Origin: an uncultured Pseudomonadota bacterium
GTDB taxonomy: Bacteria; CALINM01
Length of the DNA stretch: 64,000 nucleotides
Direction: 5' to 3'
Assembly (NCBI GenBank): GCA_964540515.1
Contig: CAZIMS010000003.1
Span: forward strand, 10,010-74,009
Shown in pieces: positions 11,107-52,201 of the stretch. The notes under the pieces are model-generated. The model was not told the origin of the DNA. It made no database searches and was given only the letters and a program-made list of their open reading frames with translations. The translations under genes and the position numbers were made by a program. How positions within the stretch are numbered: the stretch's first letter is position 1; the number at the start of each line of letters is the position of its first letter.

Positions 11107-11123
11107 AATTTTAGGAGAACCTT

Positions 11124-25745: not shown

Positions 25746-25764
25746 GGTTTACTGGGAGGTCATT

Positions 25765-30506: not shown

Positions 30507-31706
30507 ATGAGATTAATTGTTTATCAGGTAGATTTAAGGATGACTATCCTGTGTCAATTTTTGTGATTTATATCTACAATCTCATTATATTTAGTAACAC
30601 TCTTTTATTTGATCTTGTTTGGGATGATATCTCCTTTCTACTGGAAAACCTCAAAATAATAGAATTAAATAGATTTTTATTTTTTTGTAGAACCCATGCC
30701 CACTGATATTTGGCCTATTAATTATAGACCTCTGCTGATGTTTAGTTTTGGCTTGGATTGCGCTCTTTGGGGATATAAATCCTTAATCTTTTAGATTGTA
30801 TTTTGAGTATCTTAGATTATTGTTTTTCCTCTACCAACTTAAATTGATTTATCATCAATTGCCTATATAAAGATTTTTTTCAGTTTGGATATATGCCATA
30901 CGCAATTTTCTTAGTTATTATATTTATTTTCTTTTTTAAAATAAGGGGAAGATATGGATTTTTTTTGTTTTGTCTCAATAATAATCTCACTTATAACGGC
31001 CTCAGATTTCTAAGTCTTATTGATATCTCACCTCTCGAAGAAAGGTATTTATATTTTCCGAGGGTTTTTTTGGTTTTCTTTAGTTCTATTTATTATAAAA
31101 GAAGTAAATAAAAAGGTAGTTCTTTATATAGCAATTGGTTTTATGGGACTTTATAGTTTTTTTTGGAATTTTAATTGGAAGAACCAAGGTGGCTTTCTGA
31201 CAAAAAAGATAAAAGATGATCCTAACTATAAAGGAGTTCATCATGAGTTTGCCCCTTTTAATCTTATAAAAGGAAATATTGATTTTTCCGAAAGGCCTTC
31301 CAAGAAAGCAATAGATATAAGAAGAGATTATTTAGAGGCTTATGTAATGTCTGAGAACCTATACAGTCTAACAAGAAGGGATGAAGAAGCTCTCCCCTAT
31401 TACTAAAAAGCTTCTCAGATAAATAAGCATAACCTTCTAATTTAAAATAATATTGCTACTACCTACCAAAATATGATGAAATTAGATAAGGCGCTTCTAA
31501 ATTACTACAGGGCTTTTCAAATTGATGAAAATTTTTATAAAACAAATTATAATCTTGGTTATTTACTTTGGAGAGTTAACAGAAATTTAGAAGCTATTAA
31601 CTTTTTGAGAAGGCCTTATAGTATAATAAATAATATTAACTTGCTAAAAGATATTAGACAATTTGAAATAGATATAGAAAAAGAGTTAAGAAATGGGGAA
31701 AGATAA
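30507..31706 (+). pseudogene. Decayed TMTC/DUF1736-like paralog (frameshifts and an internal deletion)
   Basis: Fragments in three frames carry the family motifs: LFDLVWDDISFL, then a shift in a T-run to PINYRPLLMFSFGLD, then LEERYLYFP (30893-31111), then WNFNWKNQ...KDDPNYKG plus TPR remnants (31020-31706). Total length is well short of the roughly 1.7 kb of the intact paralogs. Confidence 0.7.
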
Positions 31707-35505: not shown

Positions 35506-36945
35506 TATATATCCTCTTCCTGTAAAATATCGGCGATCAAAGATGCTAAAAAATACTCTTGGCAGCGCTATGGTAAGATAATAATTTTTTATTTTTATAA
35601 ACTTATAGTATCTATGTTTAATAATTTTTTTTACTAACCATTTTGGAAAAAGGAATAAATAATTATAAAGAAATATAAGACCATAATAGTTTTCATCATT
35701 AAATTCACGCCAATGAAGCCCCTTTTTTGAGTGTAATCCTTCTTCGACAATCCTTATATCATTTTCCTTTAAATAGCCTTTGTCTAAGGCATAATTTGTA
35801 ATACTTGTCTTAGGGTAGTAGTTTAAGAAAAAAAGACTAATTAAATTTGGTCTATGTTCATTATAAGTAAGAATAGCCTTTTCATGATTTTCAATAGTAT
35901 CATCGGGGATACCTATTAGATGGTCTGTTTGAAGAAAGATTTTATGTTTTTTTACAATTTCAATTGATTCTATGATTTTTTTATTAGAAGTAGGTCTTCT
36001 AAGAACATTTTTGCAAAGCTCTTCATTAAAAGATTGTACCCCCATTTGTATATCAAGGCAATTTGCTTTTTTTAGCAACTCTATCTTTTCTTCATCTATA
36101 TTGAGGGGACTGAGACTACAGAGAAAAGGTAATCCAATATATTTTTTATAATCTCTTGAAAAATCTATCAACCAGTTTTTGTTTAATCCAAATAAATCGT
36201 CGGCAAAATGGACATATTTAATACCAAATTTTTTTTTTGCATATAAAAGCTCTTCTAGTACATTTTCAACAGATCTTTGTCGGATGATTAACCTGCTCTT
36301 TAAGGTTTTATAGTAATCGTTAATGCAATAAGAACAATAATAGGGACATCCTCTACTTGTAATTATTAAGTATTCTCTTTTGAGAAAGGGCATCTCTTTA
36401 TAAAAAGGTTCTTTGTTAGGGAATGGGATTTTATCGAGATCTGAAAGAGGACCTTCTAAAAACTCTCCTAACAAAACATTGTCTCTCTTAAAAACGATAC
36501 CTTCAACGGGTTTATCAGGAAGAAATATTTCCTTTTCTTTTATTTCAAGGCTATTTATAAAATTTTTTAAAGATATCTCTCCCTCTCCTATGGAAATGGC
36601 GTCTATGAAAGCATTTGATATTACTTTTTCTGGGACTAAGGTAGTATGAATACCACCAAAAATTATTAATGTTTTTGGTGATATTTTTTTTACTTCCTTA
36701 GCTAAGTTTAATTGAAAGATATAATTATCTGTTAATGCAGAAAAACAGACTATTTTTGTTTCTCTATCTATTATTTTCTTAGCGAGTTCTGAATAATTAA
36801 TTTTAAAAGATGATTTCAGATAAGGGTCAAAGGACCTATAAAAGAATAAATCAGATTCCACTCCTTCTTTTTTTAAAATTGAAAGGAGATAAGCAATACC
36901 TAAATTCTCAAAATCCGGATAGACAAATAAAACTTTTTTTTTCAT
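35473..36945 (-). CDS. B12-binding domain radical SAM protein (class B radical SAM, possible methyltransferase)
   Basis: N-terminal Rossmann-like B12-binding region (MKKKVLFVYPDFENLG...) and the radical SAM cluster motif SRGCPYYCSYC. Its 3' end overlaps the convergent TMTC-like gene by 33 nt. Confidence 0.75.
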   Translation of the reverse strand: MKKKVLFVYPDFENLGIAYLLSILKKEGVESDLFFYRSFDPYLKSSFKINYSELAKKIIDRETKIVCFSALTDNYIFQLNLAKEVKKISPKTLIIFGGIHTTLVPEKVISNAFIDAISIGEGEISLKNFINSLEIKEKEIFLPDKPVEGIVFKRDNVLLGEFLEGPLSDLDKIPFPNKEPFYKEMPFLKREYLIITSRGCPYYCSYCINDYYKTLKSRLIIRQRSVENVLEELLYAKKKFGIKYVHFADDLFGLNKNWLIDFSRDYKKYIGLPFLCSLSPLNIDEEKIELLKKANCLDIQMGVQSFNEELCKNVLRRPTSNKKIIESIEIVKKHKIFLQTDHLIGIPDDTIENHEKAILTYNEHRPNLISLFFLNYYPKTSITNYALDKGYLKENDIRIVEEGLHSKKGLHWREFNDENYYGLIFLYNYLFLFPKWLVKKIIKHRYYKFIKIKNYYLTIALPRVFFSIFDRRYFTGRGYILRFLYNILHL

Positions 36946-38791: not shown

Positions 38792-40645
38792 ATGAACATT
38801 ATCGGTATATCTTCCTTTTATCACGACTCAGCTGTATGTTTGTTAATAGATGGTAAGGTTATTAATGCTATCCAAGAAGAGAGATTTAGTCGTATAAAAA
38901 ACGATATGTCTTTTCCTATCAATGCTTTAGATTTTTGTCTAAAAAATAATGGATTAGGTATCGAGGATATTGATCTATTTGTATTTTATGAGAAGCCATT
39001 TGTTAAGTTTGAAAGGATTTTGGAGAATGTATTAATAAATGCGCCAAAGGGACTAAAATCGTTTGTTAAACAGATTCCTGTATGGATAAAAGAAAAAATC
39101 TTTCTTAAAGATATTATTTATAACTATCTAAAAAATGTGAAGGATGATAAAGCGCTCTTTAATAAGATTGCTTTTGTGCCACATCATTTTGCCCACGCAG
39201 GAAGTGCCTTTTATCCCTCTAACTTTGATGAATCCGCTATTATTACCATAGATGGTGTGGGAGAATGGGCAACAGCCTCTATAGGCCATGGTAGAGAAAA
39301 CAAGATAAGAGTATTCAAAGAGATGTATTTTCCCCATTCAATAGGACTCTTTTACTCTTCTGTTACATATTATTTAGGTTTTAAGGTAAACTCTGATGAG
39401 TATAAGGTTATGGGGCTTGCCCCCTATGGGAATGAAAGGTCAAAAGATTATGAGGCAATTTACGATAAGTTTAAACAGATTATTAAGATAAATGATGATG
39501 GTTCCGTGTTTCTTAAACAGAATTTTTTTGATTACCTCTATGAAGACAGGATGGTAAAAGATCTAAAATGGAAAGAGCTTTTTGGATTCGAAAGAAGAAA
39601 GAAAGATGAAAAGATTGAACAATGGCATTGTGATATGGCTCTGGCAAGTCAGAGAATATTAGAATCTGCTATATTAAAAATGTGTAAACTCGCTAAAGAG
39701 ATTACAAGATCTAAAAATTTATGTTTAGCAGGCGGCGTGGCTTTAAATTGTGTAGCTAACTCAAGGATTTTAGAAGAAAACATCTTTGATAATATCTGGA
39801 TACAACCAGCGGCAGGAGATGCAGGTGGGGCTATGGGAGCTGCTTTTTGTGGTTATCATATCTATTTTGATAAGCAAAGAGAGATAATTAAGGAAGATTA
39901 TGACAAACTTAATTGGAGCTTTTTAGGACCAGAATTTTCTAACTTGCAGATTATTCCTGTATTAAAAAAATATAAGTTAAGTTACTTACACTTTGATAAC
40001 TTTGAAAAATTAGTTGATGAAGCAGTGAAGGAGCTTATTAAAGGAAAGGTGATAGGCTGGTTTCAGGGAAGAATGGAGTGGGGGCCAAGGGCTTTGGGAA
40101 ATAGGAGTATTTTAGCTGATCCAAGAAACAAGGAGATGCAAAGGATTGTTAATTTAAAAGTTAAATTTAGAGAGGGCTTTCGTCCCTTTGCACCAGCAGT
40201 GTTAGAAGAAGATTTTAGAGAGGTCTTTGAAGAGAGGACAGGCTCCCCCTATATGCTTCTAGTCTCTAAAATTAAAGAAGGCCTTAGAAAATATTGTCAC
40301 AGCATTGATAATATGTCTGTGGAGGATAAGATTAATTATTCAAGCTCAGTTTTTCCAGCTGTAACACATCTTGATTTTTCAGCAAGGGCTCAGATTGTAA
40401 ATGAAAGATCTAACTATAAGTTTTATAGATTATTAAAAAAGTTTAAGGAAAATACAGGTTTTGGTATAATATTAAATACCAGCTTCAATGTAAAGGATGA
40501 ACCTATTGTGTGTAGCCCTGAAGATGCCATAAAGTGTTATTTGAAGACAGATATTGATCTTTTATTTATCGAAGATTTCATAGTTTACAAAAAAAGTGAA
40601 AAGGCATATTTTAATAGAGCTTTTAATTTTTTTGAGAGTAACTAA
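38792..40645 (+). CDS. Carbamoyltransferase, NodU/CmcH family
   Basis: N-terminus MNIIGISSFYHDSAVCLLIDGKVINAIQEERFSRIKND is the signature start of NodU/CmcH O-carbamoyltransferases (Kae1/YgjD-like fold). The protein is 617 aa. Confidence 0.85.
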   Translation: MNIIGISSFYHDSAVCLLIDGKVINAIQEERFSRIKNDMSFPINALDFCLKNNGLGIEDIDLFVFYEKPFVKFERILENVLINAPKGLKSFVKQIPVWIKEKIFLKDIIYNYLKNVKDDKALFNKIAFVPHHFAHAGSAFYPSNFDESAIITIDGVGEWATASIGHGRENKIRVFKEMYFPHSIGLFYSSVTYYLGFKVNSDEYKVMGLAPYGNERSKDYEAIYDKFKQIIKINDDGSVFLKQNFFDYLYEDRMVKDLKWKELFGFERRKKDEKIEQWHCDMALASQRILESAILKMCKLAKEITRSKNLCLAGGVALNCVANSRILEENIFDNIWIQPAAGDAGGAMGAAFCGYHIYFDKQREIIKEDYDKLNWSFLGPEFSNLQIIPVLKKYKLSYLHFDNFEKLVDEAVKELIKGKVIGWFQGRMEWGPRALGNRSILADPRNKEMQRIVNLKVKFREGFRPFAPAVLEEDFREVFEERTGSPYMLLVSKIKEGLRKYCHSIDNMSVEDKINYSSSVFPAVTHLDFSARAQIVNERSNYKFYRLLKKFKENTGFGIILNTSFNVKDEPIVCSPEDAIKCYLKTDIDLLFIEDFIVYKKSEKAYFNRAFNFFESN

Positions 40646-40757
40646 AAAGTGGTGGTTAGCCCCAATTATAATTTTTCTTCTATTGTTGAGTATCATTTTG
40701 TATTCAGAGTTAACAGGACTCTCTCCTTTTATTTATACATTTTTTTAGTGGTACTAT

Positions 40758-41114
40758 ATGAAAGATACAAAAATTAATAGATTACCATTGTTAATAATTA
40801 TTTTTTTATTGCTCCTTTACGGAAAATACCTCTGGATATATATACCATTGATTTTGCTGATTCTAATAGAGCTATCTACTAAATCCTTAAGGTTATATGT
40901 ATATGCTTTAAAAAAAACTGTAAAAATTATAGGCACTGTGAATAACTGGGTTTTTCTTACTATAACTTATTTTTTGATCATAATCCCCATATCTTTTTTT
41001 TATAAAAAGAGTAAGAAATCAAAGATTAATTACTATACAAACTCATCTATCCCTTCTACTTTTTTGAATGTGGATTATAAAATTGATAGGGCAAGCTTCT
41101 TTAATCAATGGTAA
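40758..41114 (+). CDS. Small membrane protein (118 aa) adjacent to the carbamoyltransferase
   Basis: Two or three predicted transmembrane helices and a basic tail. No known motif. Confidence 0.4.
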   Translation: MKDTKINRLPLLIIIFLLLLYGKYLWIYIPLILLILIELSTKSLRLYVYALKKTVKIIGTVNNWVFLTITYFLIIIPISFFYKKSKKSKINYYTNSSIPSTFLNVDYKIDRASFFNQW

Positions 41115-42283
41115 TTTGGCATTTTGTTATCTGATTTTTCTAAAAAATTTTTTGATAAAAACTCTACAAGCAGTTCAGCGATTATACTGTTTGCTTTATC
41201 GTTTGGGTGTTTGTCTTTGGGATGCACCCATAGCTCATAGTCTTTATAAACTCTAAAATATGGGAATAAATCAATGTATGTTATTTTATTTTCTTGAAAA
41301 ACATTATGCATAAAGCTATGAATCTTAAAGAAAGGATACTCATCGTTGAGCTTATATAGGATAGGAAAAAACAAAACTATAAACTTAATATTTCTTCTAT
41401 CACATTCATTCTTAAGCTCTATCAAAGAAGTAATATTTAGTTGCAAATCATCTAAGTTATCTTCGGAATAAAGGTTGTAGTAGCTTTGTATAGTTTGGCT
41501 TTTTAGATCCCTTAAAAAGAACATTAGATCGATAAATCTGTATAGGTAAGAAAAGCTAAAAAATCTATCACTGTAATCAATATTCATAGGGGCACCTTCA
41601 AATAAGTCTAAAATTCGGGGATTGGGTTCAATTTTGTTGTTTTTTTTATCATAATAAAAAATGTTACCTTCAACATCATTTATGTTGAAGCCGTAAATAA
41701 CAATATCAGGAGTTAGTCTTAAGGCTATATCCATAAATATATGATAGCAGTTAAAAATGTTGTTTCCAGGGGATGCAAGGTTCATACATTCTATGTCTTT
41801 GTTAGGGAAAAGCTCTCTAAGTTTTTTACATACTTTCTCTGGGTAGGTTTCAGCATCAAAAAGCCCCCACCCAAAGGTAAAGGAGTCACCTAAAAAGGCA
41901 ACTCTAACTGAGTTTTTTGGTTTTTTCTCATCAAAGTCTTTACCTCTAAAGCCATAGTTATTTGTTTTTATAAAACCCCTTTTCTCAGTTGAAGAAAAAA
42001 AGCTGGAAGAAGGATAGATAAACTCCCACACACTATTGGGCTGGGGAAGTAAATATAAAATTTTGTTGTATCCATTAATCTCTCGAGTTTTAATTCTTAC
42101 GTTAGGTGCCTTAAGCTCATAGCTCTTGAAAATACGATTGTAAATAAAAGGAATTCTAAGAATAATCTCGGCAACTATAATCAGATATAAAAGATATAAA
42201 AAAGCTTGTATAAGCTTTGACTTCTTTATAATTATTTGTGGTGACATTAAAGATATTTTAAGAATTTCTCTTTTTTTTAGCAA
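41105..42283 (-). CDS. Membrane-anchored SGNH/GDSL-family hydrolase (esterase or acyltransferase-like)
   Basis: N-terminal transmembrane helix. Block I is AFLGDSFTFGWG (GDS), block III is GFNINDVEG (GxND), and block V is DKHPND (DxxH). Confidence 0.65.
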   Translation of the reverse strand: MLKKREILKISLMSPQIIIKKSKLIQAFLYLLYLIIVAEIILRIPFIYNRIFKSYELKAPNVRIKTREINGYNKILYLLPQPNSVWEFIYPSSSFFSSTEKRGFIKTNNYGFRGKDFDEKKPKNSVRVAFLGDSFTFGWGLFDAETYPEKVCKKLRELFPNKDIECMNLASPGNNIFNCYHIFMDIALRLTPDIVIYGFNINDVEGNIFYYDKKNNKIEPNPRILDLFEGAPMNIDYSDRFFSFSYLYRFIDLMFFLRDLKSQTIQSYYNLYSEDNLDDLQLNITSLIELKNECDRRNIKFIVLFFPILYKLNDEYPFFKIHSFMHNVFQENKITYIDLFPYFRVYKDYELWVHPKDKHPNDKANSIIAELLVEFLSKNFLEKSDNKMPNYH

Positions 42284-42396
42284 GCACCGTTATAAATTAA
42301 AAATAGGCTAATATTAAGTTTTGTTAAAGTTACAATTTTTTATTTAAAATCGACAATTTGACAAAGGTTTGATACATTTGTTAGCATAAGATTATT

Positions 42397-45342
42397 ATGA
42401 GACTTATAGTTATCTATGTGCTCTTTGCATTATCTGGTTTCTCTGCGCTGATTTACGAGCTTTTGTTTACCTACTATCTTAAATTGTTTTTAGGGCACTC
42501 TTCCTATTCTCAAACCTTAGTCTTAGCAGTTTTTATGGGAGGATTGACTATAGGCTCTTTTTTAATAGGTTATTTTATTAGGAAGATAAAGGATCCTGCT
42601 TTTTTTTATATTTTAGTAGAGGTTATTGTTGGATTATATGCCATTTTTTTTGATCCTATTTTTAGAAGCTTTATTGACTTTTCCTATAGATTTGTTATTC
42701 CAGATATTTCAGAGCCCCTATATATAGATCTCTACAGAATAATCTCCTCTACTATTCTAATTATCCCACAGTTTATTCTTTTGGGTACTACTTTTCCTTT
42801 AATAAGTTCCTTCTTATTTAAACTTGAGAATAACATTAATAGAGGCAAGATTTTAGCAAGCTTATATTTTACTAATACAATTGGTGGGGTGGCAGGCATC
42901 TTTTTGTCAGGTTTTATTCTACTTGATTATTTAGGTCTTAGAGAGACTATAACTTTAGCTGGTTATGTAAATATTTTTATAGCATTAGTAATTATCTTTT
43001 TACAAAAAAAAGAAAAAATTAAGGACACTACTAAGGATATTACTGATACGTTACCAAATTCTTTAAAATTAGACGATAGATATTATCTACTTTTTTTTGT
43101 TGCCTTTCTTACAGGTTTTTCTTCTTTTATTTATGAAGTGACCTGGATAAGGATGCTATCTTTAATTTTTGGGAACTCTGTTCATTCCTTTGAGATAATG
43201 CTTCTTTCTTTTCTATTAGGACTTGCCTTTGGTGGCTTCTTTTTGAGCAAGAGGATAGAAAATATAAATAATTGTATTTTTTATCTCATCAAGGTACAGG
43301 TGCTTATGGGTTTTTTTGCCATTGCAACTTTGCCTTTTTATAACATTTCTTTTGATATTTTTTGTTATCTTTTTAATATTTTCCCTAAAACTCAAGAAGG
43401 TTATCATCTTTACAATTTTGTTACTCAATCTATATCCATCTTAATAATGTTTCCTGCCACATTTTTTGCTGGTATGACATTGCCTTTGATAACGCATATC
43501 TTGATTAAGAATGGCTATGGTGAAAAAGTAATAGGCTATGTCTATGGAGTTAATACTATTGGAGCTGTTTTAGGAATTACTATTACTATATATTTTCTGA
43601 TTCCTATAATAGGTCTTAAGGATTCTCTTATTATAGGTGCCTTGATTGATATTATGATTGGTATTGAGCTTTTTTTAAAGTTTGGTGGTGAAAGAAAAAG
43701 TTTATTCAACAAAAAATATTTTTACTTTGCTACAGCTTTAACAGTTGTCCTTATAGGTTATTTTTTTGATCCCAAACCTTTAAAGCTTGTTTCAGGAATT
43801 TACAGGACAGGAGAGTTAATCAAAGATAAAGAAGCAAAAATTATCTATTATAAAGATGGCAAGACGGCAAGTATATCGGTTGTAAATATTGATGATGCCC
43901 TTTCTATTAGAACAAATGGAAAAAGTGATAGTGCTTTATGCATAGATCCTAAGAGACCTCCCGAGTTAGATGAGTACACGGTCTTCTTGTTAGGGTATCT
44001 ACCACAGCTATATATGCCAGAGGCAAAGAGTGCTGTAAATATTGGAATGGGAACAGGGGTAAGCAGTAATATATTATTAAGTAATAGAAATATTGAAGAG
44101 GTCTATACTGTTGAGATTGAGAAAGAGGTTGTAAAGGCAGGTAAGTTTTTCTCGCCCTTTAATGACCTTGTCTTTAAAGACGCAAGAAGCAAGATAGTTA
44201 TTGATGATGCGAGGAACTTTTTCATAAAGAATAAAAAAAAGTATGATATCATTATTTCGGAGCCTTCTAATCCTTGGATAACAGGAGTTGCTAGTCTTTT
44301 TACTAATGAGTTTTATAAGATTGTTGCTGAGGATCTAAAAGACGATGGGGTCTTGGTTCAATGGCTTCAGTTGTATGAGATTGATATTAGATTGATGGTA
44401 TCGGTATTTAAAGCCTTGTCTGAGCATTTTGAAGATTATTATATATACGCACCTAATGATAATGAGGTGCTTATAATATTAAAGAAGAAAGGGAAGCTGG
44501 GGACAATAAAAAGTCTTGTGACAAACAATGAAGTAAATTATTTTTTAAATAAACTAAATATAAATACCCTTTGTGACATTAAAGTCAGAAAAATTGGCAG
44601 TAAAGAGACAATGGAGAAATTTTTTAATACTTTTGATATCACAGCAAATAGTGATTACTTACCTATCCTTGAAAGACAAGCACCAATGGCAAGATTTATG
44701 AATGTTGGTGCAGGAGACTTCTTAAAAATAGCCAATTATTATGTGCCTTTACTTAGATTTTTTGAGGAAGAAAATAAAGGATTTAATTATGTTACCGATA
44801 ATAGCTGCTTTTCAAGGTCTAAGATGGCTTATAAAGCAAAAGTTGTAAGAGACATCTTCCTTTATGATGAGATTTGTTATAATACGCCAAAAGAGATACT
44901 GGAAGATATGTTAAAATTAAAAGCATATTTAAAGGATCCAGAAAAAGTTCTTAGCTTTGATGAGAGGATGAATTTACTGTTGGGTCTTGCTATAACAACA
45001 ATTCCCTACTTAGATGAGAGAGATTTGACTAATATGTGGGATAGTGTCATAAAAAGCAAAGCCTATCTAAGAATGACTGATATAGAAAAAAGTTGGATAG
45101 AACTATTTAGGAGTATCAGTGTTAGGGATATTTATAAGATGAGAGACCAGTCAAAAAAGATTATTCTTACTCTCAAGCAGATGCCTCAGATAGCTAAAGA
45201 GTATCTCTATACCTCTTATTTATTAAGTGATGTCTTATTGGGGTCAAAGAGTAATACTATTAATAATGAGATTAGGATTGAAAGAAGTTTTTGGGGTGAA
45301 AATACAATTATCTATGATTATCTGATGAGCCTATATCTATGA
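42397..45342 (+). CDS. Fused MFS-like membrane domain plus spermidine synthase-like (aminopropyltransferase fold) protein, 981 aa
   Basis: About 12 N-terminal transmembrane helices. The central domain has VNIGMGTGV...IVIDDARNFF...YDIIISEPSNPW, the polyamine aminopropyltransferase (PABS) signature. A C-terminal extension of about 400 aa follows. Confidence 0.7.
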   Translation: MRLIVIYVLFALSGFSALIYELLFTYYLKLFLGHSSYSQTLVLAVFMGGLTIGSFLIGYFIRKIKDPAFFYILVEVIVGLYAIFFDPIFRSFIDFSYRFVIPDISEPLYIDLYRIISSTILIIPQFILLGTTFPLISSFLFKLENNINRGKILASLYFTNTIGGVAGIFLSGFILLDYLGLRETITLAGYVNIFIALVIIFLQKKEKIKDTTKDITDTLPNSLKLDDRYYLLFFVAFLTGFSSFIYEVTWIRMLSLIFGNSVHSFEIMLLSFLLGLAFGGFFLSKRIENINNCIFYLIKVQVLMGFFAIATLPFYNISFDIFCYLFNIFPKTQEGYHLYNFVTQSISILIMFPATFFAGMTLPLITHILIKNGYGEKVIGYVYGVNTIGAVLGITITIYFLIPIIGLKDSLIIGALIDIMIGIELFLKFGGERKSLFNKKYFYFATALTVVLIGYFFDPKPLKLVSGIYRTGELIKDKEAKIIYYKDGKTASISVVNIDDALSIRTNGKSDSALCIDPKRPPELDEYTVFLLGYLPQLYMPEAKSAVNIGMGTGVSSNILLSNRNIEEVYTVEIEKEVVKAGKFFSPFNDLVFKDARSKIVIDDARNFFIKNKKKYDIIISEPSNPWITGVASLFTNEFYKIVAEDLKDDGVLVQWLQLYEIDIRLMVSVFKALSEHFEDYYIYAPNDNEVLIILKKKGKLGTIKSLVTNNEVNYFLNKLNINTLCDIKVRKIGSKETMEKFFNTFDITANSDYLPILERQAPMARFMNVGAGDFLKIANYYVPLLRFFEEENKGFNYVTDNSCFSRSKMAYKAKVVRDIFLYDEICYNTPKEILEDMLKLKAYLKDPEKVLSFDERMNLLLGLAITTIPYLDERDLTNMWDSVIKSKAYLRMTDIEKSWIELFRSISVRDIYKMRDQSKKIILTLKQMPQIAKEYLYTSYLLSDVLLGSKSNTINNEIRIERSFWGENTIIYDYLMSLYL

Positions 45343-46598
45343 GTAGAGAACATAAAGAGATTAAAAAATGTAGAATTTGTGGTAATGATGATTTTGAGGA
45401 GATAATATCTTTAGGTAATTTAGCCTTTACAGGCATTTTTCCCAAAAAAAAAACTATATCTGTACCTTATGGTCCCCTAACGGTTATTAAGTGTTCAGAA
45501 AAGAATGGAAAAGGCTGTGGAGTCCTTCAGTTAAAACATAGTTTCGATAAGTATAAGCTTTATGGCGAGAGTTATGGCTATAGGTCAGCCCTAAATGTAA
45601 GTATGGTTAATCATCTGAAAGATATTTCTATGGATATTAAAAAAATCTTGGATCTGAAAAAAGACGATATTATCTTGGATATAGGTAGTAATGACGGCAC
45701 CTTTCTTTCCTTTTTCGAAAAAGATTACATACTGATAGGCGTTGATCCAACAGCTCTAAAGTTTATTAAATATTATAGAGATGACATTATGGTAATAGCA
45801 GATTTTTTTAGCAAAGATAAGGTTATTAAGCTTATAGGTAAAAAAAGACCTAAGGTTATAACTTCTATTGCTATGTTTTATGATTTAGAAGATCCTGTAG
45901 CCTTTGCTAAAGAGATTAATGATCTACTTGATGATGATGGATTATGGGTATTTGAACAGAGCTATACTCCCAATATTTTTAAAAAAAACGGCTATGATAC
46001 AATATGTCATGAGCATTTACTTTATTACTCATTGAGAGATATAAAATTGATCTTGGATAAGTCTGGTTTTAAGATTTTAGAGATAAAACTAAATAACGTA
46101 AACGGTGCGAGCATAAGGTTATATGCTGCAAAAAGTAGATCGAGATATAAAAGTGCTACAAAGAAGATAAAAGCCATCTTGGAATATGAAAGAAGGATTG
46201 GTTTTTATGAAGAGCCTTTTTTTAAAAATTTTAGAGAGGCTATTTTAAGACACAAAGATGAACTAGTTGGTTTTATTGAGAATGAAATCAAGAAGGGCAA
46301 AAAGTTTTTTGGTTACGGTGCTTCTACAAAAGGTAATGTAATCCTACAGTTTTGTGGTATAAACGATAGGCATATTAAATATATAGCGGAGGTAAATGAG
46401 GATAAGTTTGGTAACTATACCCCAGGAAGTTTGATTAAGATTATATCCGAAAGAGATGCAAGGCAGCTTAGACCAGATTATTTTTTGGTTCTGCCATGGC
46501 ATTTTAAAAAAGGGATTATTTCAAAAGAAGATTCCTATCTTAAAAGTGGTGGCAAACTGGTTTTTCCCCTTCCTAACTTAGAGGTAATTAATGGCTAA
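45339..46598 (+). CDS. SAM-dependent C-methyltransferase with an N-terminal zinc ribbon (sugar C-methyltransferase family, TylCIII/NovU-like)
   Basis: N-terminal CRICGNDDFEEI...C..C zinc-binding domain, a class I methyltransferase core (ILDIGSNDGTF), and a C-terminal domain typical of the Methyltransf_13/14 pair. Confidence 0.7.
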   Translation: MSREHKEIKKCRICGNDDFEEIISLGNLAFTGIFPKKKTISVPYGPLTVIKCSEKNGKGCGVLQLKHSFDKYKLYGESYGYRSALNVSMVNHLKDISMDIKKILDLKKDDIILDIGSNDGTFLSFFEKDYILIGVDPTALKFIKYYRDDIMVIADFFSKDKVIKLIGKKRPKVITSIAMFYDLEDPVAFAKEINDLLDDDGLWVFEQSYTPNIFKKNGYDTICHEHLLYYSLRDIKLILDKSGFKILEIKLNNVNGASIRLYAAKSRSRYKSATKKIKAILEYERRIGFYEEPFFKNFREAILRHKDELVGFIENEIKKGKKFFGYGASTKGNVILQFCGINDRHIKYIAEVNEDKFGNYTPGSLIKIISERDARQLRPDYFLVLPWHFKKGIISKEDSYLKSGGKLVFPLPNLEVING

Positions 46599-47523
46599 TG
46601 TTTTTATAGTAGGTGCTGGCGGTCAGGATGGCAGGATCTTGTTGAACTATCTCAAGAATGAAGAGGTTATATGCTTCTATAAAGAGAGGATATCTTTTTT
46701 ATCTGAAAGAAGGGAGATAAATATAGAAGAATATAAAAAAGAGATAGTTTTTGATATGGTAAGAAGATATAATCCTCAATATTTATACTATCTGGCAGGT
46801 TATCACCATTCTTCCGAAGAAAGTCAAGGGCTTGATATTGATGTATTTGAGAGGAGTAATTTTACCCATGCAGTCTTGTTTAGTTATTTTCTGGAAGCAA
46901 TGAGATTGTATGCCCCTAAGGGTCGTATCTTTTATGCAGCCTCATCTTTAATTTATGGCAATCCTAAGGTAGAGATATTAGATGAGAATAGGCCTATAAA
47001 TCCTATATGCCTTTATGGTATTACAAAGGCCACAGGATTTTTTTTAGCCAAATATTATAGAGAAAAACATAATATGTTTGTTTCTAATGGAATCCTATTT
47101 AATCACGAATCTGAATATAGACCCGAGAGATTTCTTTTTACTAAGGTAATCAAAAGGGCCTTTGCCATAAAAAATGGTTTAGAAAATAAACTATTAATTG
47201 GGAATCTCAAGGCGGTAAACGACTGGGGATATGCCTATGATTATGTGAAGGCAATGATTAATATTTTAAATCTTAAAAATGCTGATGATTTTGTAATAGC
47301 GAGCGGTGAGGCTCACAGCGTAGAAGAGCTTGTGGAGATAGTTTTTTCCCATTTAGGTTTAAACTATAAGGATTATGTATGTGAAGATAGTAGCTTAATT
47401 GTAAGAAATAAGCCTGTCTTGATAGGAAATCCTTCAAAATTAATTAAAGCGACTGGCTGGAAGAGAGAGGTTAGTTTTAAAGAGATGATAATAAGAATTA
47501 TGGATGCTTTAAGAGATGGATAG
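46591..47523 (+). CDS. NAD(P)-dependent sugar nucleotide 4,6-dehydratase/reductase of the GDP-mannose 4,6-dehydratase (Gmd/Rmd) family
   Basis: Rossmann motif VGAGGQDGRIL, catalytic YGITKATGFFLAKYY (YxxxK), and ILFNHESEYRPERFLFTKVIKR matching the Gmd NHESPRRGxxFVTRKI block. Confidence 0.7.
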   Translation: MANVFIVGAGGQDGRILLNYLKNEEVICFYKERISFLSERREINIEEYKKEIVFDMVRRYNPQYLYYLAGYHHSSEESQGLDIDVFERSNFTHAVLFSYFLEAMRLYAPKGRIFYAASSLIYGNPKVEILDENRPINPICLYGITKATGFFLAKYYREKHNMFVSNGILFNHESEYRPERFLFTKVIKRAFAIKNGLENKLLIGNLKAVNDWGYAYDYVKAMINILNLKNADDFVIASGEAHSVEELVEIVFSHLGLNYKDYVCEDSSLIVRNKPVLIGNPSKLIKATGWKREVSFKEMIIRIMDALRDG

Positions 47524-48226
47524 ACTACTAATTTTTATTCCTACCTACAATGAAAAAGAGAATGTTAAAGAAATGGTTAGACAGATCAACTCTACAAATT
47601 TAGAGTTGGACCTTCTTTTTGCTGATGACAACTCTCCTGATGGAACAGGTAAGATACTTAATGAACTAAAAAAGGAATATAAAAACCTCTTAGTGGTTCA
47701 TAGAGAAAAGAAAATGGGTATAGGTAGTGCCCACAAGTTTGGCATTAAATACGCCTATGATAATAATTATGATTATCTGATTACTATGGATTGTGATTTT
47801 ACCCATAGTCCTTCTGATATAACAAAATTTTTGAAAGAAAAAGACTATGATGTTGTAGTAGGTACACGTTATAAAGATAAGAAAAGTTTAGAAGATTGGA
47901 ATTTATATAGAAGATTTCTAACAAAATTAGGACATTTCTTAACAAAAACCCTATTATCTTTAGAGTATGATGCGACAGGTGCTTTTAGATTATACAATTT
48001 AAAGAAGATTGATAGTGAAATTTTTGATAAAGTTGAATCTAATGGTTATGCCTTTTTTTTTGAGAGCTTATTTTTCCTAAACTTAAAGGGTTATAAGATT
48101 AAAGAAGTTCCCATAATCCTTCCCAAGAGAACTTATGGCAGCTCAAAAATGTCCTTTCTTGAGATCTTTAAAAGCCTCAAAAGGCTTGGAAGACTTTTTT
48201 TGTACAGAACTGGAATTTTAAGATGA
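47516..48226 (+). CDS. GT2 glycosyltransferase, polyprenyl-phosphate sugar synthase (Dpm1-like), copy 2
   Basis: LLIFIPTYNEKENV...LLFADDNSPDGT...ITMDCDFTH. Confidence 0.8.
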   Translation: MDRLLIFIPTYNEKENVKEMVRQINSTNLELDLLFADDNSPDGTGKILNELKKEYKNLLVVHREKKMGIGSAHKFGIKYAYDNNYDYLITMDCDFTHSPSDITKFLKEKDYDVVVGTRYKDKKSLEDWNLYRRFLTKLGHFLTKTLLSLEYDATGAFRLYNLKKIDSEIFDKVESNGYAFFFESLFFLNLKGYKIKEVPIILPKRTYGSSKMSFLEIFKSLKRLGRLFLYRTGILR

Positions 48227-48870
48227 CTATGGACTGGGAAGAGTACTGGCAGGCAAAAAAAGTTGGGAAGAGACCTTTTTATGATATTATTGCCTCTCTA
48301 TACAGATTTTTTATAATAAGAAGAAGCCTAAATTATTTTATCAAGAAATATGCCAAAAAAGAGAATTATCTCCTCCACGCAGGCTCAGGGAGTGGTGAAG
48401 TAGATAAAGACCTAATATATAATTATAAGATATTTGCTATTGATAGCTCAGCTGAGGCGATGAATATTAACAGAGTTGATAATTATAAAGTGAGAGGCGA
48501 TATCTTTTTCTTACCCTTTAGGGATAATACTTTTGATATAGTCTATAATCTCGGAGTGCTTGAACACTTTAGTAGAGGTGAGATAATAAAATTGCTTTGT
48601 GAGTTTAAAAGAGTTCTCAAGAAGAAAGGCTATCTTATAGTTTTTATACCACCAGAGTTTGGATTAACGGTGGTCTTTTTCAAATTACTCAAGAAGTTTT
48701 TAAAAATTTTTATGAGAAGTGAGGTTGAGTTTCATCCCAAAGAGCCATCGAGACTAAAGTCTAAAAAAGAAGCTCTGGAATTTTTAGATGAGTCTGGTTT
48801 AAAATTAAAAGAATATTACTTTGGCATAAGAGACCTCTTTACTTATTCTGTAATAATAGCTGAAAAATGA
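48223..48870 (+). CDS. Class I SAM-dependent methyltransferase
   Basis: LLHAGSGSGEVD (motif I) and a downstream acidic-loop motif. The protein is 215 aa. Confidence 0.6.
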   Translation: MTMDWEEYWQAKKVGKRPFYDIIASLYRFFIIRRSLNYFIKKYAKKENYLLHAGSGSGEVDKDLIYNYKIFAIDSSAEAMNINRVDNYKVRGDIFFLPFRDNTFDIVYNLGVLEHFSRGEIIKLLCEFKRVLKKKGYLIVFIPPEFGLTVVFFKLLKKFLKIFMRSEVEFHPKEPSRLKSKKEALEFLDESGLKLKEYYFGIRDLFTYSVIIAEK

Positions 48871-50420
48871 TCAAGACAGAAAAAAAACTCTACATTTTTT
48901 TATTACTTTTAATAACCTCAATATTTTATCTGAGAGTTTTCTTCCTTGATTTTGTATGGGATGATATACCTCAGGTAATACATAATACAACGGTTAAAAA
49001 TTTTGATCTTTTCAATATGTTTATAAAAGATGGAGAGTGGGGGATAGCAGTTAGGGAGACAAAAACACCTTACTATAGGCCAATCTTTATATTATCTTTA
49101 GCCATAGATTACCTTATTGCTGGTGAAAATCCAGCGTTTTTTCATACAACCAATCTAATATTACATCTTCTTCTAACTTTAGCAATATTTTATACGCTTT
49201 CTTACTACTTTGAGGATAAATTTTATGCCTTTTTAGGCTCCTTGTTTGTAGCTCTTTATCCTGCAAGGGCTGAGGCTGTTGTCTATGTAAGTGCAAGGCT
49301 TCATATTTTAGGAGCTCTTTTTTCGATATTAACCTTTTATCTATTAAAAAGATATTTTACTGAAAATAATAAAAAACTATATTACCTTTCAGTTTTAACC
49401 TTTTTTCTAAGTATCTTTAGTTTTGAGATGAGTCTCTTCTTGCCAGTCTTTGTAATTTTAGAAAATGGCTTCTCAAAGTTGAAAAATACAGTCAAGATAT
49501 TGGCGCCTCATATTGTTCTGATTATAATCTATTTTCTTGCAAGATGGTTAGTACTTACGAAGTATATATGGTTTGATGTGCCCTTTCCTACAAAGTTTTT
49601 TACTGGATTAGCCACTTTTGTTAAGTATTTAGAGATAATTTTTTTCCCCTTTAATCTGAAAACCTTTTATGAAAATTTTGATTATTTCAAGAAAAATATT
49701 GATTTAGATGTGGCTTTTGGTTTTGTCTTGCTTAGCCTATTAATATACAGTCTCTACATATCTTACAAGAAAAATAGGGTAATATTTTTGGGGCTACTGT
49801 GGTTTTTGTTAACATTCTTCTTTGTATCTAATATCCCCTATCTTATGTATCCATCACTAATAGCAGAAAGATATCTTTACTTTCCATTAATAGGACTTGC
49901 TTTTATTATCCCTGAGTGTTTTAGAGTTTCTATAAAGGATGAGAATAAAAAAAAGATAATAATAGTAAGTGTTACTATTTTGTTTTTAATACCTGCCTTC
50001 TATTCAATTTATAAAAGGACAACACCTTATAAAAACAATCTTCTCTTTTGGCAAGAGGCTATAAAGGATGCCCCTAAAAATACTTATGCCCTTGATCAGC
50101 TTGCGCAGGTTTATTTAGGAATGAATAACTATTTTGAGGCTTTAAGGCTCTATGAGATAATTGCTGAGATTAATCCAGGAGATTTTGATAATTATACAAA
50201 GATGGGCAATTTTTATTTAAAATTTGGCAATTATTTAAACGCTGAGATTTACTACAACAAGGCTTTAGAGATAAAAGAGTATGATGAGGCCTATTGGGGG
50301 CTTGCAAGAGTTAATATATTAAAAAATGATTTTGAGAAAGCCAAAATCTACCTTGAAAAGGCTATAAAAATATCCCCTCATAAGAAAAAATATAGAGAAA
50401 GCTTACAGAGTATTAGGTAA
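48867..50420 (+). CDS. TMTC/DUF1736-like TM+TPR GT-C glycosyltransferase (paralog)
   Basis: LDFVWDDIPQV, PYYRPIFIL, SARLHI and IAERYLYFP, followed by C-terminal TPRs. Confidence 0.65.
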   Translation: MIKTEKKLYIFLLLLITSIFYLRVFFLDFVWDDIPQVIHNTTVKNFDLFNMFIKDGEWGIAVRETKTPYYRPIFILSLAIDYLIAGENPAFFHTTNLILHLLLTLAIFYTLSYYFEDKFYAFLGSLFVALYPARAEAVVYVSARLHILGALFSILTFYLLKRYFTENNKKLYYLSVLTFFLSIFSFEMSLFLPVFVILENGFSKLKNTVKILAPHIVLIIIYFLARWLVLTKYIWFDVPFPTKFFTGLATFVKYLEIIFFPFNLKTFYENFDYFKKNIDLDVAFGFVLLSLLIYSLYISYKKNRVIFLGLLWFLLTFFFVSNIPYLMYPSLIAERYLYFPLIGLAFIIPECFRVSIKDENKKKIIIVSVTILFLIPAFYSIYKRTTPYKNNLLFWQEAIKDAPKNTYALDQLAQVYLGMNNYFEALRLYEIIAEINPGDFDNYTKMGNFYLKFGNYLNAEIYYNKALEIKEYDEAYWGLARVNILKNDFEKAKIYLEKAIKISPHKKKYRESLQSIR

Positions 50421-52201
50421 TGATATCTTTTAAAAAAATAAAAAATGAAAAAATTTATTCTTATTTAGCTTTTATAGTTTTTATAAGCCTTTTAGTCTTT
50501 GCTAATACCCTCTTTTTTGACTATGTGTGGGATGATACTCACCAGATTAAATATAACAGGTCTCTAAGGGATATCAAAAACATTTATGATTTCTTTCTCA
50601 GCCCAATACCTGAGATGCCCATGTATTACCGCCCCATCTTTATGTTGTCACTATTAATTGATTATCAGATATGGGGACCTTCTCCCTTTGGGTTTCATCT
50701 AACTAATATCTTACTAAACATTTTCTCTAATATACTAATTTTCATTGTAGTAGAAAGAATTTTTAAATCGAGGGCTATTGCCTTTATAGCAGCTCTTATA
50801 TTTGCTGTTCATCCATCCCATTCTTCATCGGTATCTTATATATCAGCAAGAAATGAGTTACTTTGTGGTTTTTTTGTTCTCCATGCCTTTTCTTTTTATA
50901 CAAAATATAAGATGGAAAGAAACAAGAGAATACATCTTTTATTAAGTCTTACTTTTTACATTCTTGCTTTACTATCTAAAGAAATGGCTATTACTATGCC
51001 TTTTCTTGTTTTACTTTATGAGTATGCCTTTCACAAAGAAGATATAAGAAGAGACTTTAAGCATATATTTCTATTTATCTTTACTACATTCATTTATTTC
51101 TTAATTAGGCTACTTGTTTTAGAAGCAGAAGCACAAAGCTTTCCTCTTTTATGGAGATTGGCTACATTCTCGAAGGTACTTTTATATGACCTCTTTATGC
51201 TTTTTTTTCCCTTCTTTCATAAGGCCTTCCATAAAGTTGAGATCTTAGAGGGTTTTTCTAACTTTTTATCGTTATTATATCTTTTGTGTGTCCTGCTGAT
51301 TTTGGCTTTAACTATCTTTTTAAGCAAGTATGATAGGAGACTCTTTTTCCCCTTTACATGGATTATTATCTCATTAATTCCGGCAACAACTATAATAACT
51401 TTTATTTACCCTACTCTTGTTGCCGAGAGATACCTATATATACCTTCTATGGGTTTGGCGATGTTTTTAGCTGTTTTTTATTATGATATTTATAATCTAA
51501 TTACAAAAAAATTTCCTCGAAAGGCCCTTTTCTTAAAAATAGCCTTTGGATTAATAACGCTGGTCTTTTTAGTGCTTACATTCGAAAGAAATTTTGAGTA
51601 TAAGGACAATCTAACTCTATGGAAGACTGCTAAAGAGGATGAGCCCTATGAGCCCTATGTTATAGATAAATTAGCGCAATCTCTAATTGAAAAAAAATAT
51701 TACGCTCAAGCTGAGGTGGAGCTTAAAAGGCTTGAGATGATAGACTATAATAACCCTCAGGTGCATCAAAAACTTGGTAATCTATATAAGAGATGGGGAA
51801 GATATGATTTAGCAGAGGCTAAATATTTATTAGCTCTAAAATTTGCACCAGATGACAACTTGGTTCTTGATGATCTTGCAGATTTATATAAGAGAAAGGG
51901 TGATTTAGATAGAGCATTAAGTATCTTTTTGCGCTCCATAGAGATAGAGCCTAAGGACTCTAATGTAAACTATGAAATAGGAGAGATCTTACTGCAAAAA
52001 AATGATTTATTTCAAGCAGAGAAGTTTTTCCTGAATGCCATTGCCTATAATCCAGATCATCATCTTGCCTTTTCGAGATTGGGAGAGATATATATGTTTA
52101 TAGGAAGAATAGATCTGGCTAAAGAGATGTTTAAGAAAGCCCTTGTATTAGAACCTGAAAATGAGGATTACAAAAACAAACTTTTGATGATAGGGCAATA
52201 G
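50420..52201 (+). CDS. TMTC/DUF1736-like TM+TPR GT-C glycosyltransferase (paralog)
   Basis: FDYVWDDTHQI, MYYRPIFML, SARNEL and VAERYLYIP, followed by C-terminal TPRs. Confidence 0.65.
   Translation: MISFKKIKNEKIYSYLAFIVFISLLVFANTLFFDYVWDDTHQIKYNRSLRDIKNIYDFFLSPIPEMPMYYRPIFMLSLLIDYQIWGPSPFGFHLTNILLNIFSNILIFIVVERIFKSRAIAFIAALIFAVHPSHSSSVSYISARNELLCGFFVLHAFSFYTKYKMERNKRIHLLLSLTFYILALLSKEMAITMPFLVLLYEYAFHKEDIRRDFKHIFLFIFTTFIYFLIRLLVLEAEAQSFPLLWRLATFSKVLLYDLFMLFFPFFHKAFHKVEILEGFSNFLSLLYLLCVLLILALTIFLSKYDRRLFFPFTWIIISLIPATTIITFIYPTLVAERYLYIPSMGLAMFLAVFYYDIYNLITKKFPRKALFLKIAFGLITLVFLVLTFERNFEYKDNLTLWKTAKEDEPYEPYVIDKLAQSLIEKKYYAQAEVELKRLEMIDYNNPQVHQKLGNLYKRWGRYDLAEAKYLLALKFAPDDNLVLDDLADLYKRKGDLDRALSIFLRSIEIEPKDSNVNYEIGEILLQKNDLFQAEKFFLNAIAYNPDHHLAFSRLGEIYMFIGRIDLAKEMFKKALVLEPENEDYKNKLLMIGQ

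Follow-up and report, generated by a model that had tools for sequence, protein, structure and literature searches.

What does a run of sugar-modifying genes in an uncultured Pseudomonadota bacterium make, and where in the cell envelope is the product put? The question is raised by positions 38792-48870 of a 64,000-nucleotide stretch of contig CAZIMS010000003.1 (assembly GCA_964540515.1; the whole stretch is called the window below), where genes for an O-carbamoyltransferase, a C-methyltransferase, a relative of GDP-mannose 4,6-dehydratase (Gmd), a family 2 glycosyltransferase (GT2) and a fusion of major facilitator superfamily (MFS) and spermidine synthase-like (PABS) domains lie side by side. 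Most likely, the cluster serves to assemble, on a lipid carrier, a sugar that is methylated and possibly carbamoylated and that is destined for envelope proteins or glycans outside the membrane, a reading to which we give a probability of about 0.5. Its product is likely a GDP-derived C-methyl (6-deoxy)hexose that passes to polyprenyl phosphate and from there to an acceptor outside the membrane. As a whole, the cluster is best described as a variant of known systems, namely a GDP-sugar C-methylation and reduction cassette joined to a Dpm1-like synthase and TMTC-like GT-C glycosyltransferases, beside a module resembling SxtIJKL.

A first-pass annotation, made from the sequence alone, had listed eight genes in this interval and read them as the route to a GDP-mannose-derived, methylated and carbamoylated 6-deoxyhexose that might also receive an aminopropyl group from the fusion. 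All eight open reading frames (ORFs) were found in place with the domain content described (Pfam and NCBIfam matches with E-values far beyond chance), but they are not all co-directional, as the SGNH hydrolase gene lies on the minus strand, and a 50-aa ORF had been overlooked. The sugar-tailoring set itself stands: a TylCIII/TcaB9/MtmC-family C-methyltransferase, an O-carbamoyltransferase, a Dpm1-like GT2 and an extra S-adenosylmethionine (SAM) methyltransferase, all within a glycosylation island. The dehydratase and aminopropyl assignments had to be given up, as set out below.

The interval falls into three parts, the carbamoyltransferase module, an overlapping operon and the 981-aa fusion itself. 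From the fusion gene onward, seven genes follow one another with overlaps of 1-8 nt at each junction, in the order fusion, C-methyltransferase, short-chain dehydrogenase/reductase (SDR), GT2, small methyltransferase and two GT-C proteins with tetratricopeptide repeat (TPR) tails. The fusion and C-methyltransferase genes overlap by 4 nt, and the two GT-C/TPR genes join the operon by overlaps of 4 nt and 1 nt. The sole sizeable gap, of 113 nt, lies upstream of the fusion gene and contains the best promoter-like matches, which is a weak pointer; the scan for promoters and terminators found no enrichment over shuffled sequences (77 vs 70.7). The genes of the operon are as follows (TM, transmembrane; NDP, nucleoside diphosphate).

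42397-45342, plus strand: MFS/PABS fusion, 981 aa (NF037959)
45339-46598, plus strand: zinc-ribbon NDP-4-keto-hexose C-methyltransferase of the TylCIII/TcaB9/MtmC/KijD1 family (Methyltransf_13/23/14)
46591-47523, plus strand: Gmd-derived short SDR, 310 aa (GDP_Man_Dehyd)
47516-48226, plus strand: GT2 resembling Dpm1 and dolichol-phosphate mannose synthase (DPMS), 236 aa, without a TM tail (Glycos_transf_2)
48223-48870, plus strand: class I SAM methyltransferase, 215 aa (Methyltransf_11)
48867-52201, plus strand: two TPR-tailed GT-C transferases (PMT_2 clan, TMTC-like, by TM-domain paralogy), beyond the interval

The C-methylation cassette and its glutamate-less SDR

The C-methyltransferase exhibits the three-domain architecture PF08421, PF13489 and PF08484, that is, a Zn ribbon, a SAM domain and a C-terminal Methyltransf_14 domain (E-values for Methyltransf_13/23/14 to 1e-46). 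It aligns end to end with MtmC (4RV9, 2.5e-51), and TcaB9 (1e-36) and KijD1 were also matched. The Zn-binding residues Cys11, Cys14, Cys52 and Cys60 are retained, as is the active-site HEH, with CHEHLLY aligning to YHEHLSY of MtmC.

Its SDR partner matches GDP_Man_Dehyd (PF16363, 1e-51), and its C-terminal half is Gmd-like over the whole length (1RPN, E = 7.5e-44), which makes the GDP-linked substrate proposed in the first-pass annotation plausible. The Rossmann motif GxxGxxG is present as GAGGQDG at residues 8-14. In Gmd, dehydration depends on a Glu that serves as the acid/base of this step. Alignment of the catalytic residues to the solved Gmds 1RPN, 1N7G, 2Z1M and 1DB3, a check proposed together with the dehydratase assignment, revealed that Ser118 takes the place of the catalytic Thr and that Tyr142 and Lys146 are kept, whereas the Glu is replaced by Leu120 (ASTSE in Gmd, AASSL here); the N-terminal third is shortened. 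Against the gmd equivalog TIGR01472, the protein reaches 156.7 bits where the cut-off is 415, and only residues 56-304 are aligned.

The loss of the Glu is not a one-off feature of a degenerate copy, because the position is occupied by Leu, His, Phe or Arg in 25 homologues of the same clade (identity as low as 39%), which come from Moranbacteria, Saganbacteria, Omnitrophota, Nitrospirota and others. The clade shares the motif AASS(L/H/F/R)xFG and a clade-specific YHHSS, and in its alignment the Gmd-type substrate-binding half is kept, with N171, H172, E173, S174, R177 and K185 invariant. A dehydratase function is therefore not supported by the residue itself, by its clade-wide loss or by the equivalog score.

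The genomic context of the clade points to a partner enzyme. In three gene-called loci (L086-L088), a clade member was found directly downstream of a zinc-ribbon C-methyltransferase, the genes overlapping, and a GT2 of about 250 aa comes next in two of the three looked-up genomes. True Gmds and members of the Glu-less clade were both found in a scan of metagenomes. Counting loci with enough flanking sequence, the C-methyltransferase is adjacent in all seven Glu-less loci (from Nitrospirota, Moranbacteria and metagenomes) and a Dpm1-like GT2 in five of them; for Glu-containing Gmds, a C-methyltransferase lies nearby in about 4/75 loci. In three of the seven Glu-less loci (L087, L090 and L091), the C-methyltransferase has a canonical Gmd at its side as well, that of L087 scoring 574 bits on TIGR01472. 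The presence of a bona fide Gmd in these loci suggests GDP-4-keto-6-deoxymannose as the substrate and a role for the Glu-less SDR after methylation. Judged by its residues and gene neighbours, the SDR is thus probably not a dehydratase but works with the C-methyltransferase as a 4-ketoreductase (or C4 oxidoreductase). In four further loci (L094, L156, L163 and L168), a zinc-ribbon C-methyltransferase is combined with a Glu-containing Gmd homologue and a Glu-less paralogue is missing from the surrounding 3 kb, so that a C-methyl sugar may be completed by more than one route.

The GT2 (PF00535, 3e-27) carries its DxD motif as DCD at residue 92. Its best PDB matches are the DPMS of P. furiosus (5MLZ, 2e-23), ArnC and GtrB, and its best NCBIfam matches PpgS, ArnC and AglJ. 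From this homology and the adjacent GT-C genes, we infer that it is a polyprenyl-phosphate monosaccharide synthase. The small methyltransferase (Methyltransf_11, 9e-15) is presumed to O-methylate the sugar or the lipid-linked sugar. Since a homologue of it follows the GT2 in four other loci (L005, L006, L086 and L091), C-METHYLTRANSFERASE / SDR / GT2 / (small METHYLTRANSFERASE) is a conserved cassette ending in a lipid-phosphate sugar. The two downstream GT-C/TPR transferases are the likely users of this lipid-linked sugar. Their TM domains are paralogous to that of a PMT_2-positive protein at 33784-35505 (E 1e-32 to 1e-50), and FVWDD or YVWDD follows TM1. Altogether, the island harbors six such paralogous TM plus TPR proteins, one of which passes Pfam PMT_2 and all of which carry (F/Y)V(W/T)DD after TM1.

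Several known systems resemble parts of this arrangement. The aminocoumarin sugar noviose is made with the C-methyltransferase NovU, the 4-ketoreductase NovS, the O-methyltransferase NovP and the carbamoyltransferase NovN, and the combination of C-methyl, O-methyl and O-carbamoyl groups on a deoxyhexose is the noviose decoration pattern of novobiocin. Both would combine, on one deoxyhexose, C-methylation of a 4-keto sugar by a TylCIII-family enzyme with 4-reduction, O-methylation and O-carbamoylation, and the likeness extends to the proteins, as the window carbamoyltransferase matches NovN (5e-83) and the C-methyltransferase matches MtmC, TcaB9 and KijD1. However, noviose is TDP-based, cytoplasmic and attached to an antibiotic aglycone by a GT1, whereas the window reductase is Gmd-derived and presumably GDP-based, and the sugar would pass via the Dpm1-like GT2 to polyprenyl phosphate and from there to the GT-C/TPR proteins. 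Rmd (GDP-6-deoxy-D-lyxo-4-hexulose reductase) is likewise a short SDR (about 300-320 aa) that occurs near Gmd and reduces C4 of the Gmd product, but the window SDR is far nearer to Gmd (1RPN, 7.5e-44) than to Rmd-related structures (2PK3, 2e-15; 6X3B, 3e-08) and belongs to its own clade with YHHSS and AASS(L/H)xFG.

The nearest GDP-based precedent is the virenose (6-deoxy-3-C-methyl-gulose) of Coxiella burnetii lipopolysaccharide (LPS), for which a route from GDP-mannose via Gmd, the TylCIII-type 3-C-methyltransferase CBU_0691 and a 4-reductase has been proposed (PMC3539893). This route was derived in silico only, its proposed reductase is of the GMER/Fcl or Rmd type, and its product enters the O-antigen without a Dpm1-like GT2. 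The final steps in the window resemble Dpm1/PMT, TMTC, Haloferax AglD/AglS, ArnC/ArnT and PpgS/Rv3779, in all of which the lipid-phosphate sugar made by a small GT2 is transferred outside the membrane by a GT-C enzyme whose first loop carries an acidic motif; TMTC also shares the TPR-tailed GT-C architecture (PMC7801869). The window differs from these systems in its predicted, heavily tailored donor sugar and in the three GT2 and eight GT-C genes of its island.

The MFS/PABS fusion

The 981-aa protein is a full-length member of the 'fused MFS/spermidine synthase' family NF037959 (108.3 bits, cut-off 40), with the full architecture present, and does not differ in membership from the NF037959/PRK03612 membrane-bound SpeE-like proteins. 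A 12-TM MFS-like part (residues 1-432) is followed by TM13 (439-456), a PABS fold (about 480-700) and a helical C-terminal domain (about 710-981). The AlphaFold2 model (pLDDT 85, pTM 0.82) exhibits 6+6 TM helices, TM13, a complete SpeE fold and the helical C-terminal domain, and an internal repeat, SGFSxLIYE and TGxSSFIYE, was identified in the 6+6 TM part. All of the top 50 Foldseek matches are SpeE proteins (TM-score about 0.65-0.73, normalized to the target), which, together with Pfam Spermine_synth (57 bits, 2e-15), confirms a SpeE fold of N-terminal beta-hairpin and Rossmann domain.

The family invariants are SEPSNPW, IGxGxG, TxEIE and DDA as well as Tyr-Glu pairs in TM1 and TM7 and an Arg in TM7. 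In spermidine synthases, the Asp of the GGGDG loop excludes SAM and selects decarboxylated SAM (dcSAM). This residue (Asp101 in T. maritima SpeE) is Thr in the window protein (GMGTG), and the family motif is IGxG(S/T)G. Further differences from the T. maritima enzyme are the replacement of DSTDP by the invariant SEPSNPW (Asp170 by Glu622, Asp173 by Asn625) and the loss of the Tyr76/His77 motif (YHE to VF); the adenosine-binding positions Glu573 and Asp604 are retained. Scores against the SpeE equivalogs remain far below the cut-offs, with 71.1 bits for TIGR00417 (cut-off 249.55), 124.1 for NF002956 (472) and 83.8 for NF002010 (260). Because positively charged residues are concentrated in the inside loops (19.8 Lys plus Arg vs 4.2 in outside loops, in 24/24 sequences) and TM13 is conserved with 19-21 residues, the PABS-like and C-terminal domains are predicted to lie outside the cytoplasmic membrane in an N-in, 12+1 TM topology. 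We know of no dcSAM available outside the cytoplasm.

A search for homologues returned 3683 matches, and hundreds of proteins share 38-63% identity over 97-100% of the length. The family occurs in more than 584 species (GTDB representatives), mainly Burkholderiales, Nitrospirota, Geobacterales and Steroidobacteraceae, and no characterized member of it was found in the literature. Among 83 fusion loci, the C-methyltransferase and SDR are adjacent only in two close relatives (L005 and L006), for which reason a conserved 'aminopropyl-sugar' module was rejected. Homologues of the GT-C/TPR proteins are located within 10 kb in 19/83 loci and a GT2 in 7/83. GT2 and GT-C/TPR pairs adjoin the fusion in Geomonas limicola (L003), ERZ25039600 (L004), L008 and L016; a Nitrospiraceae copy sits after ftsH-folP-cdaA-ybbR-glmM.

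These findings leave aminopropylation by the fusion unsupported, and the idea does not pass the check on dcSAM-binding residues suggested with the first-pass annotation: in the PABS-like domain, Thr or Ser stands in the GGGDG loop where Asp would select dcSAM, and EPSNP replaces DSTDP. The domain is also predicted to be extracytoplasmic, and most members of the family lie away from sugar genes. By its sequence, the fusion is not a canonical dcSAM aminopropyltransferase, and, since the gene neighbourhoods of its family are mostly unrelated to sugars, it is not a dedicated sugar-tailoring enzyme either. Should it act in the pathway at all, transport or extracytoplasmic modification is a more likely task for it than aminopropylation of the sugar.

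The carbamoyltransferase module and the surrounding island

Upstream of the operon, a second set of genes running in one direction comprises those for the carbamoyltransferase, the DUF5989 protein and the SxtJ-like protein; the GDSL hydrolase gene is convergent to this set.

38792-40645, plus strand: O-carbamoyltransferase of the NodU/CmcH/TobZ/GdmN/NovN family (Carbam_trans_N, Carbam_trans_C)
40596-40748, plus strand: DUF5989 protein, 50 aa, single TM (PF19451)
40758-41114, plus strand: 118-aa membrane protein, probable divergent member of the SxtJ family (homologues match PF19588)
41105-42283, minus strand: SGNH/GDSL hydrolase (Lipase_GDSL_2)

The carbamoyltransferase conforms to the Kae1/YrdC-like two-domain architecture (Carbam_trans_N, 286 bits, 6e-85; Carbam_trans_C, 230 bits, 1e-68), and its PDB matches are full-length (7XB6, 4e-89; GdmN, 1e-86; NovN, 5e-83; TobZ, 8e-70). 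With 147 bits against the NodU equivalog NF041651, whose cut-off is 1000, its profile scores place it as a member of the family and not a NodU orthologue. It has no hydrophobic segment and is presumably a soluble, cytoplasmic enzyme. The previously overlooked DUF5989 ORF (50.5 bits, cut-off 27) overlaps the 3' end of the carbamoyltransferase gene and has a counterpart at the equivalent place in the relative L005. The 118-aa protein has no direct Pfam match, but 12/18 of its homologues match SxtJ (PF19588, best 1.4e-7), as does the orthologue in L005 (E = 0.003). The GDSL hydrolase (Lipase_GDSL_2, 34.3 bits, 4e-08; also matching the Leptospira LA_2486-type GDSL family) carries a single TM helix at residues 24-42, preceded by a Lys-rich N-terminus, and its catalytic domain is predicted to lie outside the membrane.

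This gene set is reminiscent of saxitoxin clusters, in which sxtI (1839 bp), sxtJ (405 bp), sxtK (165 bp) and the GDSL gene sxtL are encoded together (PMC2679770). Common to both are an O-carbamoyltransferase (about 610 aa), a small protein of the SxtJ type, a further protein of about 50 aa and a GDSL hydrolase, whose genes lie together; the DUF5989 protein matches SxtK in position and size, and the equivalence of the two follows from these features only. The substrate differs, being an alkaloid in the case of saxitoxin and presumably a glycan intermediate here. The two tiny membrane proteins might serve to hold the soluble carbamoyltransferase at a substrate bound to the membrane.

The interval is located inside a low-GC island of about 35 kb (approximately 20.5 to 56 kb; 27-32% GC vs 34-41% in the flanks) of a diderm organism, as BamD-like and OEP/HlyD genes are present. 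Wzx, Wzy, Wzz, an ABC exporter, WaaL, an initiating phosphoglycosyl transferase and cytoplasmic elongating glycosyltransferases are all absent from the island. Given the lack of Wzx/Wzy or ABC export, of an initiating transferase and of cytoplasmic elongation, its logic is that of an envelope-glycosylation island in which a polyprenyl-phosphate monosaccharide is made inside and transferred by GT-C enzymes outside the membrane. Its three small Dpm1/AglJ-like GT2s all carry a DxD motif.

Two STT3/AglB-like proteins are encoded at 21387-24002 and 31693-33765 (TIGR04154 archaeo_STT3, 332 and 174 bits, cut-off 450), in which the WWDYG motif of canonical oligosaccharyltransferases is replaced by TWDMG and AWDIG; the first of them is overlapped by an AglJ-like GT2 gene (23995-24684). 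These genes may reflect an archaeal-type N-glycosylation route with a dolichyl phosphate-like carrier in a bacterium, or encode divergent GT-C enzymes. Between this first pair and the first GT-C/TPR gene, at 24681-28822, lie ORFs of 354, 714 and 310 aa, each with a single N-terminal hydrophobic segment, two without a Pfam family and the third a DUF1573 protein; all are candidates for exported acceptor or accessory proteins. The GT-C/TPR genes are bracketed by two B12-binding radical-SAM enzymes on the minus strand (35473-36945 and 54574-55971), whose best matches, all far below the cut-offs, are HpnJ, P-methyltransferase and C-methyltransferase families. The pair could add further methyl groups at unactivated glycan carbons.

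The stretch immediately upstream of the island (8976-20264) holds genes for an NHL-repeat protein and a multihaem cytochrome of 258 aa, together with two very large ORFs (1595 and 1446 aa). A reading of these two as rpoB/rpoC was rejected, as a homology search identified the 1595-aa product as a giant multihaem c-type cytochrome (CxxxxCH/CxxCH family) related to proteins of Geopsychrobacter and Geothermobacter; its 1446-aa neighbour is assumed to be a further one. Similarly, the clusters of fusion, GT2 and GT-C/TPR genes in Geomonas limicola and ERZ25039600 are flanked by multihaem cytochromes and beta-propeller proteins, and an ORF with at least four haem motifs occurs within 10 kb in 6/83 fusion loci vs 0/83 control loci. 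Extracellular cytochromes may be among the glycosylation targets.

A toxin-antitoxin pair of MNT-type nucleotidyltransferase and HepT-like protein (20565-21288) is located exactly at the left edge of the island, consistent with horizontal acquisition or stabilization. Past the right end of the window by about 4.5-7 kb (15881-18210 of L169), a gene of the UDP-glucose/GDP-mannose-dehydrogenase family is followed by a WecB-like UDP-GlcNAc 2-epimerase gene, and this WecC/WecB-like pair likely belongs to a UDP-ManNAc(A) pathway, a second sugar-nucleotide supply near the island. An actin-like protein (ALP_N/MreB-like_C, ParM/Alp7-type; 59806-60822) is chromosomal and encoded beside SPOR and LysM proteins.

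Proposed pathway and alternatives

In the proposed pathway, a GDP-4-keto-hexose, most likely GDP-4-keto-6-deoxy-D-mannose from a canonical Gmd encoded elsewhere, would be C-methylated by the zinc-ribbon methyltransferase, at C3 by family precedent. The Glu-less Gmd paralogue would then reduce C4 in an Rmd-like role, and the Dpm1-like GT2 would move the GDP-C-methyl-(6-deoxy)hexose onto polyprenyl phosphate. The small methyltransferase would probably O-methylate the sugar and, after flipping, the two TPR-tailed GT-C enzymes would pass it to an extracytoplasmic protein or protein-bound glycan. The SxtI/K/J/L-like module would probably attach a carbamoyl ester to a membrane-associated intermediate, belonging either to this glycan or to a neighbouring one, and could also trim it.

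Several points weigh against this scheme. Characterized members of the C-methyltransferase family use TDP-sugars, and the GDP carrier of its substrate is suggested here by the Gmd-like partner only. MtmC-type C-methyltransferases can reduce C4 themselves, in which case the SDR might act otherwise. The 6-deoxy step is an assumption, because neither a canonical Gmd nor ManC or another NDP-sugar-forming enzyme was found across the 64 kb of the window and a further 6 kb or so of readable sequence upstream and 7 kb downstream, where only the WecC/WecB-like pair lies. A flippase was not identified, and the carbamoyl acceptor need not be the sugar of the operon. Finally, the 4-nt overlap of the fusion gene with the C-methyltransferase gene and the GT2 and GT-C/TPR neighbours in Geomonas and other non-Burkholderiales make a functional link of the fusion to glycosylation possible.

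The alternatives concern the sugar and its acceptor as well as the fusion. In the full model of the first-pass annotation, the SDR is a 4,6-dehydratase, the sugar a C-methylated, carbamoylated 6-deoxyhexose on a protein-linked glycan, and the fusion adds an aminopropyl or polyamine-like group at the membrane. The GDP_Man_Dehyd match (1e-51), the Gmd-like C-terminal half (1RPN, 7.5e-44), the genuine PABS fold with Glu573 and Asp604 kept, the translational coupling of the fusion to the C-methyltransferase and the STT3-like genes all agree with it. Nevertheless, it is very improbable in view of the clade-wide loss of the catalytic Glu (Leu in the window), the equivalog score of 157 vs 415 bits and the coexistence of a true Gmd in three loci on the one hand, and of the altered GGGDG (Asp to Thr/Ser), DSTDP (EPSNP) and YHE (lost) motifs, the SpeE equivalog scores far below cut-off, the predicted extracytoplasmic PABS domain and a fusion family mostly outside sugar loci on the other. 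Another alternative would have the SDR act as a Gmd-independent C4 oxidoreductase which oxidizes GDP-mannose (or another GDP-hexose) to the 4-keto sugar and re-reduces it after C-methylation, so that the 3-C-methyl hexose keeps its 6-OH. The intact Tyr and Lys, the gene overlaps of 4-8 nt and the lack of a Gmd in the window and flanks, with a Gmd close by in only 3/7 clade loci, would fit such a cycle, and Gmd-family enzymes that only oxidize C4 reportedly exist, for example C. jejuni Cj1427 acting on GDP-heptose. It is unlikely, however, as known TylCIII-type enzymes act on 4-keto-6-deoxy sugars, a canonical Gmd stands right beside the C-methyltransferase in L087, L090 and L091, and in the window organism Gmd could lie elsewhere in the genome.

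With regard to the acceptor, the STT3/AglB-like and TMTC-like GT-C/TPR genes favour a protein, and another envelope glycan is possible. The sugar might instead decorate the LPS core, an O-antigen-like chain or another surface glycan, as with ArnC/ArnT, GtrB/GtrC and PpgS/Rv3779, an option that we regard as possible but less probable. The pairing of a Dpm1-like GT2 with GT-C enzymes also serves the decoration of lipid A, O-antigen and arabinogalactan, the best GT2 matches include ArnC, GtrB and PpgS, the organism is diderm, and the closest precedent for a GDP-based C-methyl-6-deoxyhexose, virenose, is an LPS sugar (PMC3539893). Against it stand the absence from the island of Wzx, Wzy, Wzz, ABC exporter, WaaL and initiating phosphoglycosyl transferase, the two STT3/AglB-like proteins (332 and 174 bits on TIGR04154) with their AglJ-like GT2, and the six TMTC-like GT-C/TPR proteins, whose eukaryotic counterparts O-mannosylate proteins (PMC7801869). 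For the fusion, a role other than PABS chemistry can tentatively be envisaged, in which the MFS part flips or exports the polyprenyl-phosphate sugar or a cationic substrate and the outward domain docks or modifies the acceptor together with the GT-C/TPR proteins. The operon offers no other flippase candidate, the fusion gene overlaps that of the C-methyltransferase by 4 nt, GT2 and GT-C/TPR neighbours recur in Geomonas limicola, ERZ25039600, L008 and L016, and the invariant Tyr-Glu pairs of TM1 and TM7 with the Arg of TM7 suggest a charged substrate; yet no GT-C/TPR homologue lies within 10 kb in 64/83 loci, a GT2 is present in only 7/83, and the Nitrospiraceae copy sits after ftsH-folP-cdaA-ybbR-glmM, so that this role is rather doubtful. 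Quite improbable is the proposal that the fusion carries out alkyl transfer outside the cytoplasm, with SAM, dcSAM or a polyamine delivered by its own MFS domain to the periplasm-facing PABS-fold site; in this operon, the target would be the envelope glycan or glycoprotein that the neighbouring GT2 and GT-C enzymes produce. If true, it would mean SAM-type chemistry outside the cytoplasmic membrane.

Beyond this locus, the 'fused MFS/spermidine synthase' family is widespread and uncharacterized, its name is probably misleading, and its predicted outward-facing PABS fold poses a testable question. Thousands of database entries named 'GDP-mannose 4,6-dehydratase' belong to the Glu-less clade that is locked to a C-methyltransferase and are probably reductases; this systematic mis-annotation alters predictions of branched-chain-sugar pathways in bacteria of the candidate phyla radiation, Nitrospirota and others. 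The operon predicts that the noviose-like pattern of C-methyl, O-methyl and O-carbamoyl groups is found on a lipid-linked envelope sugar and not only in antibiotics. With archaeal-type STT3s, three Dpm1-like synthases and six TMTC-like transferases beside giant multihaem cytochromes, the island constitutes a compact candidate system for bacterial extracytoplasmic glycosylation.

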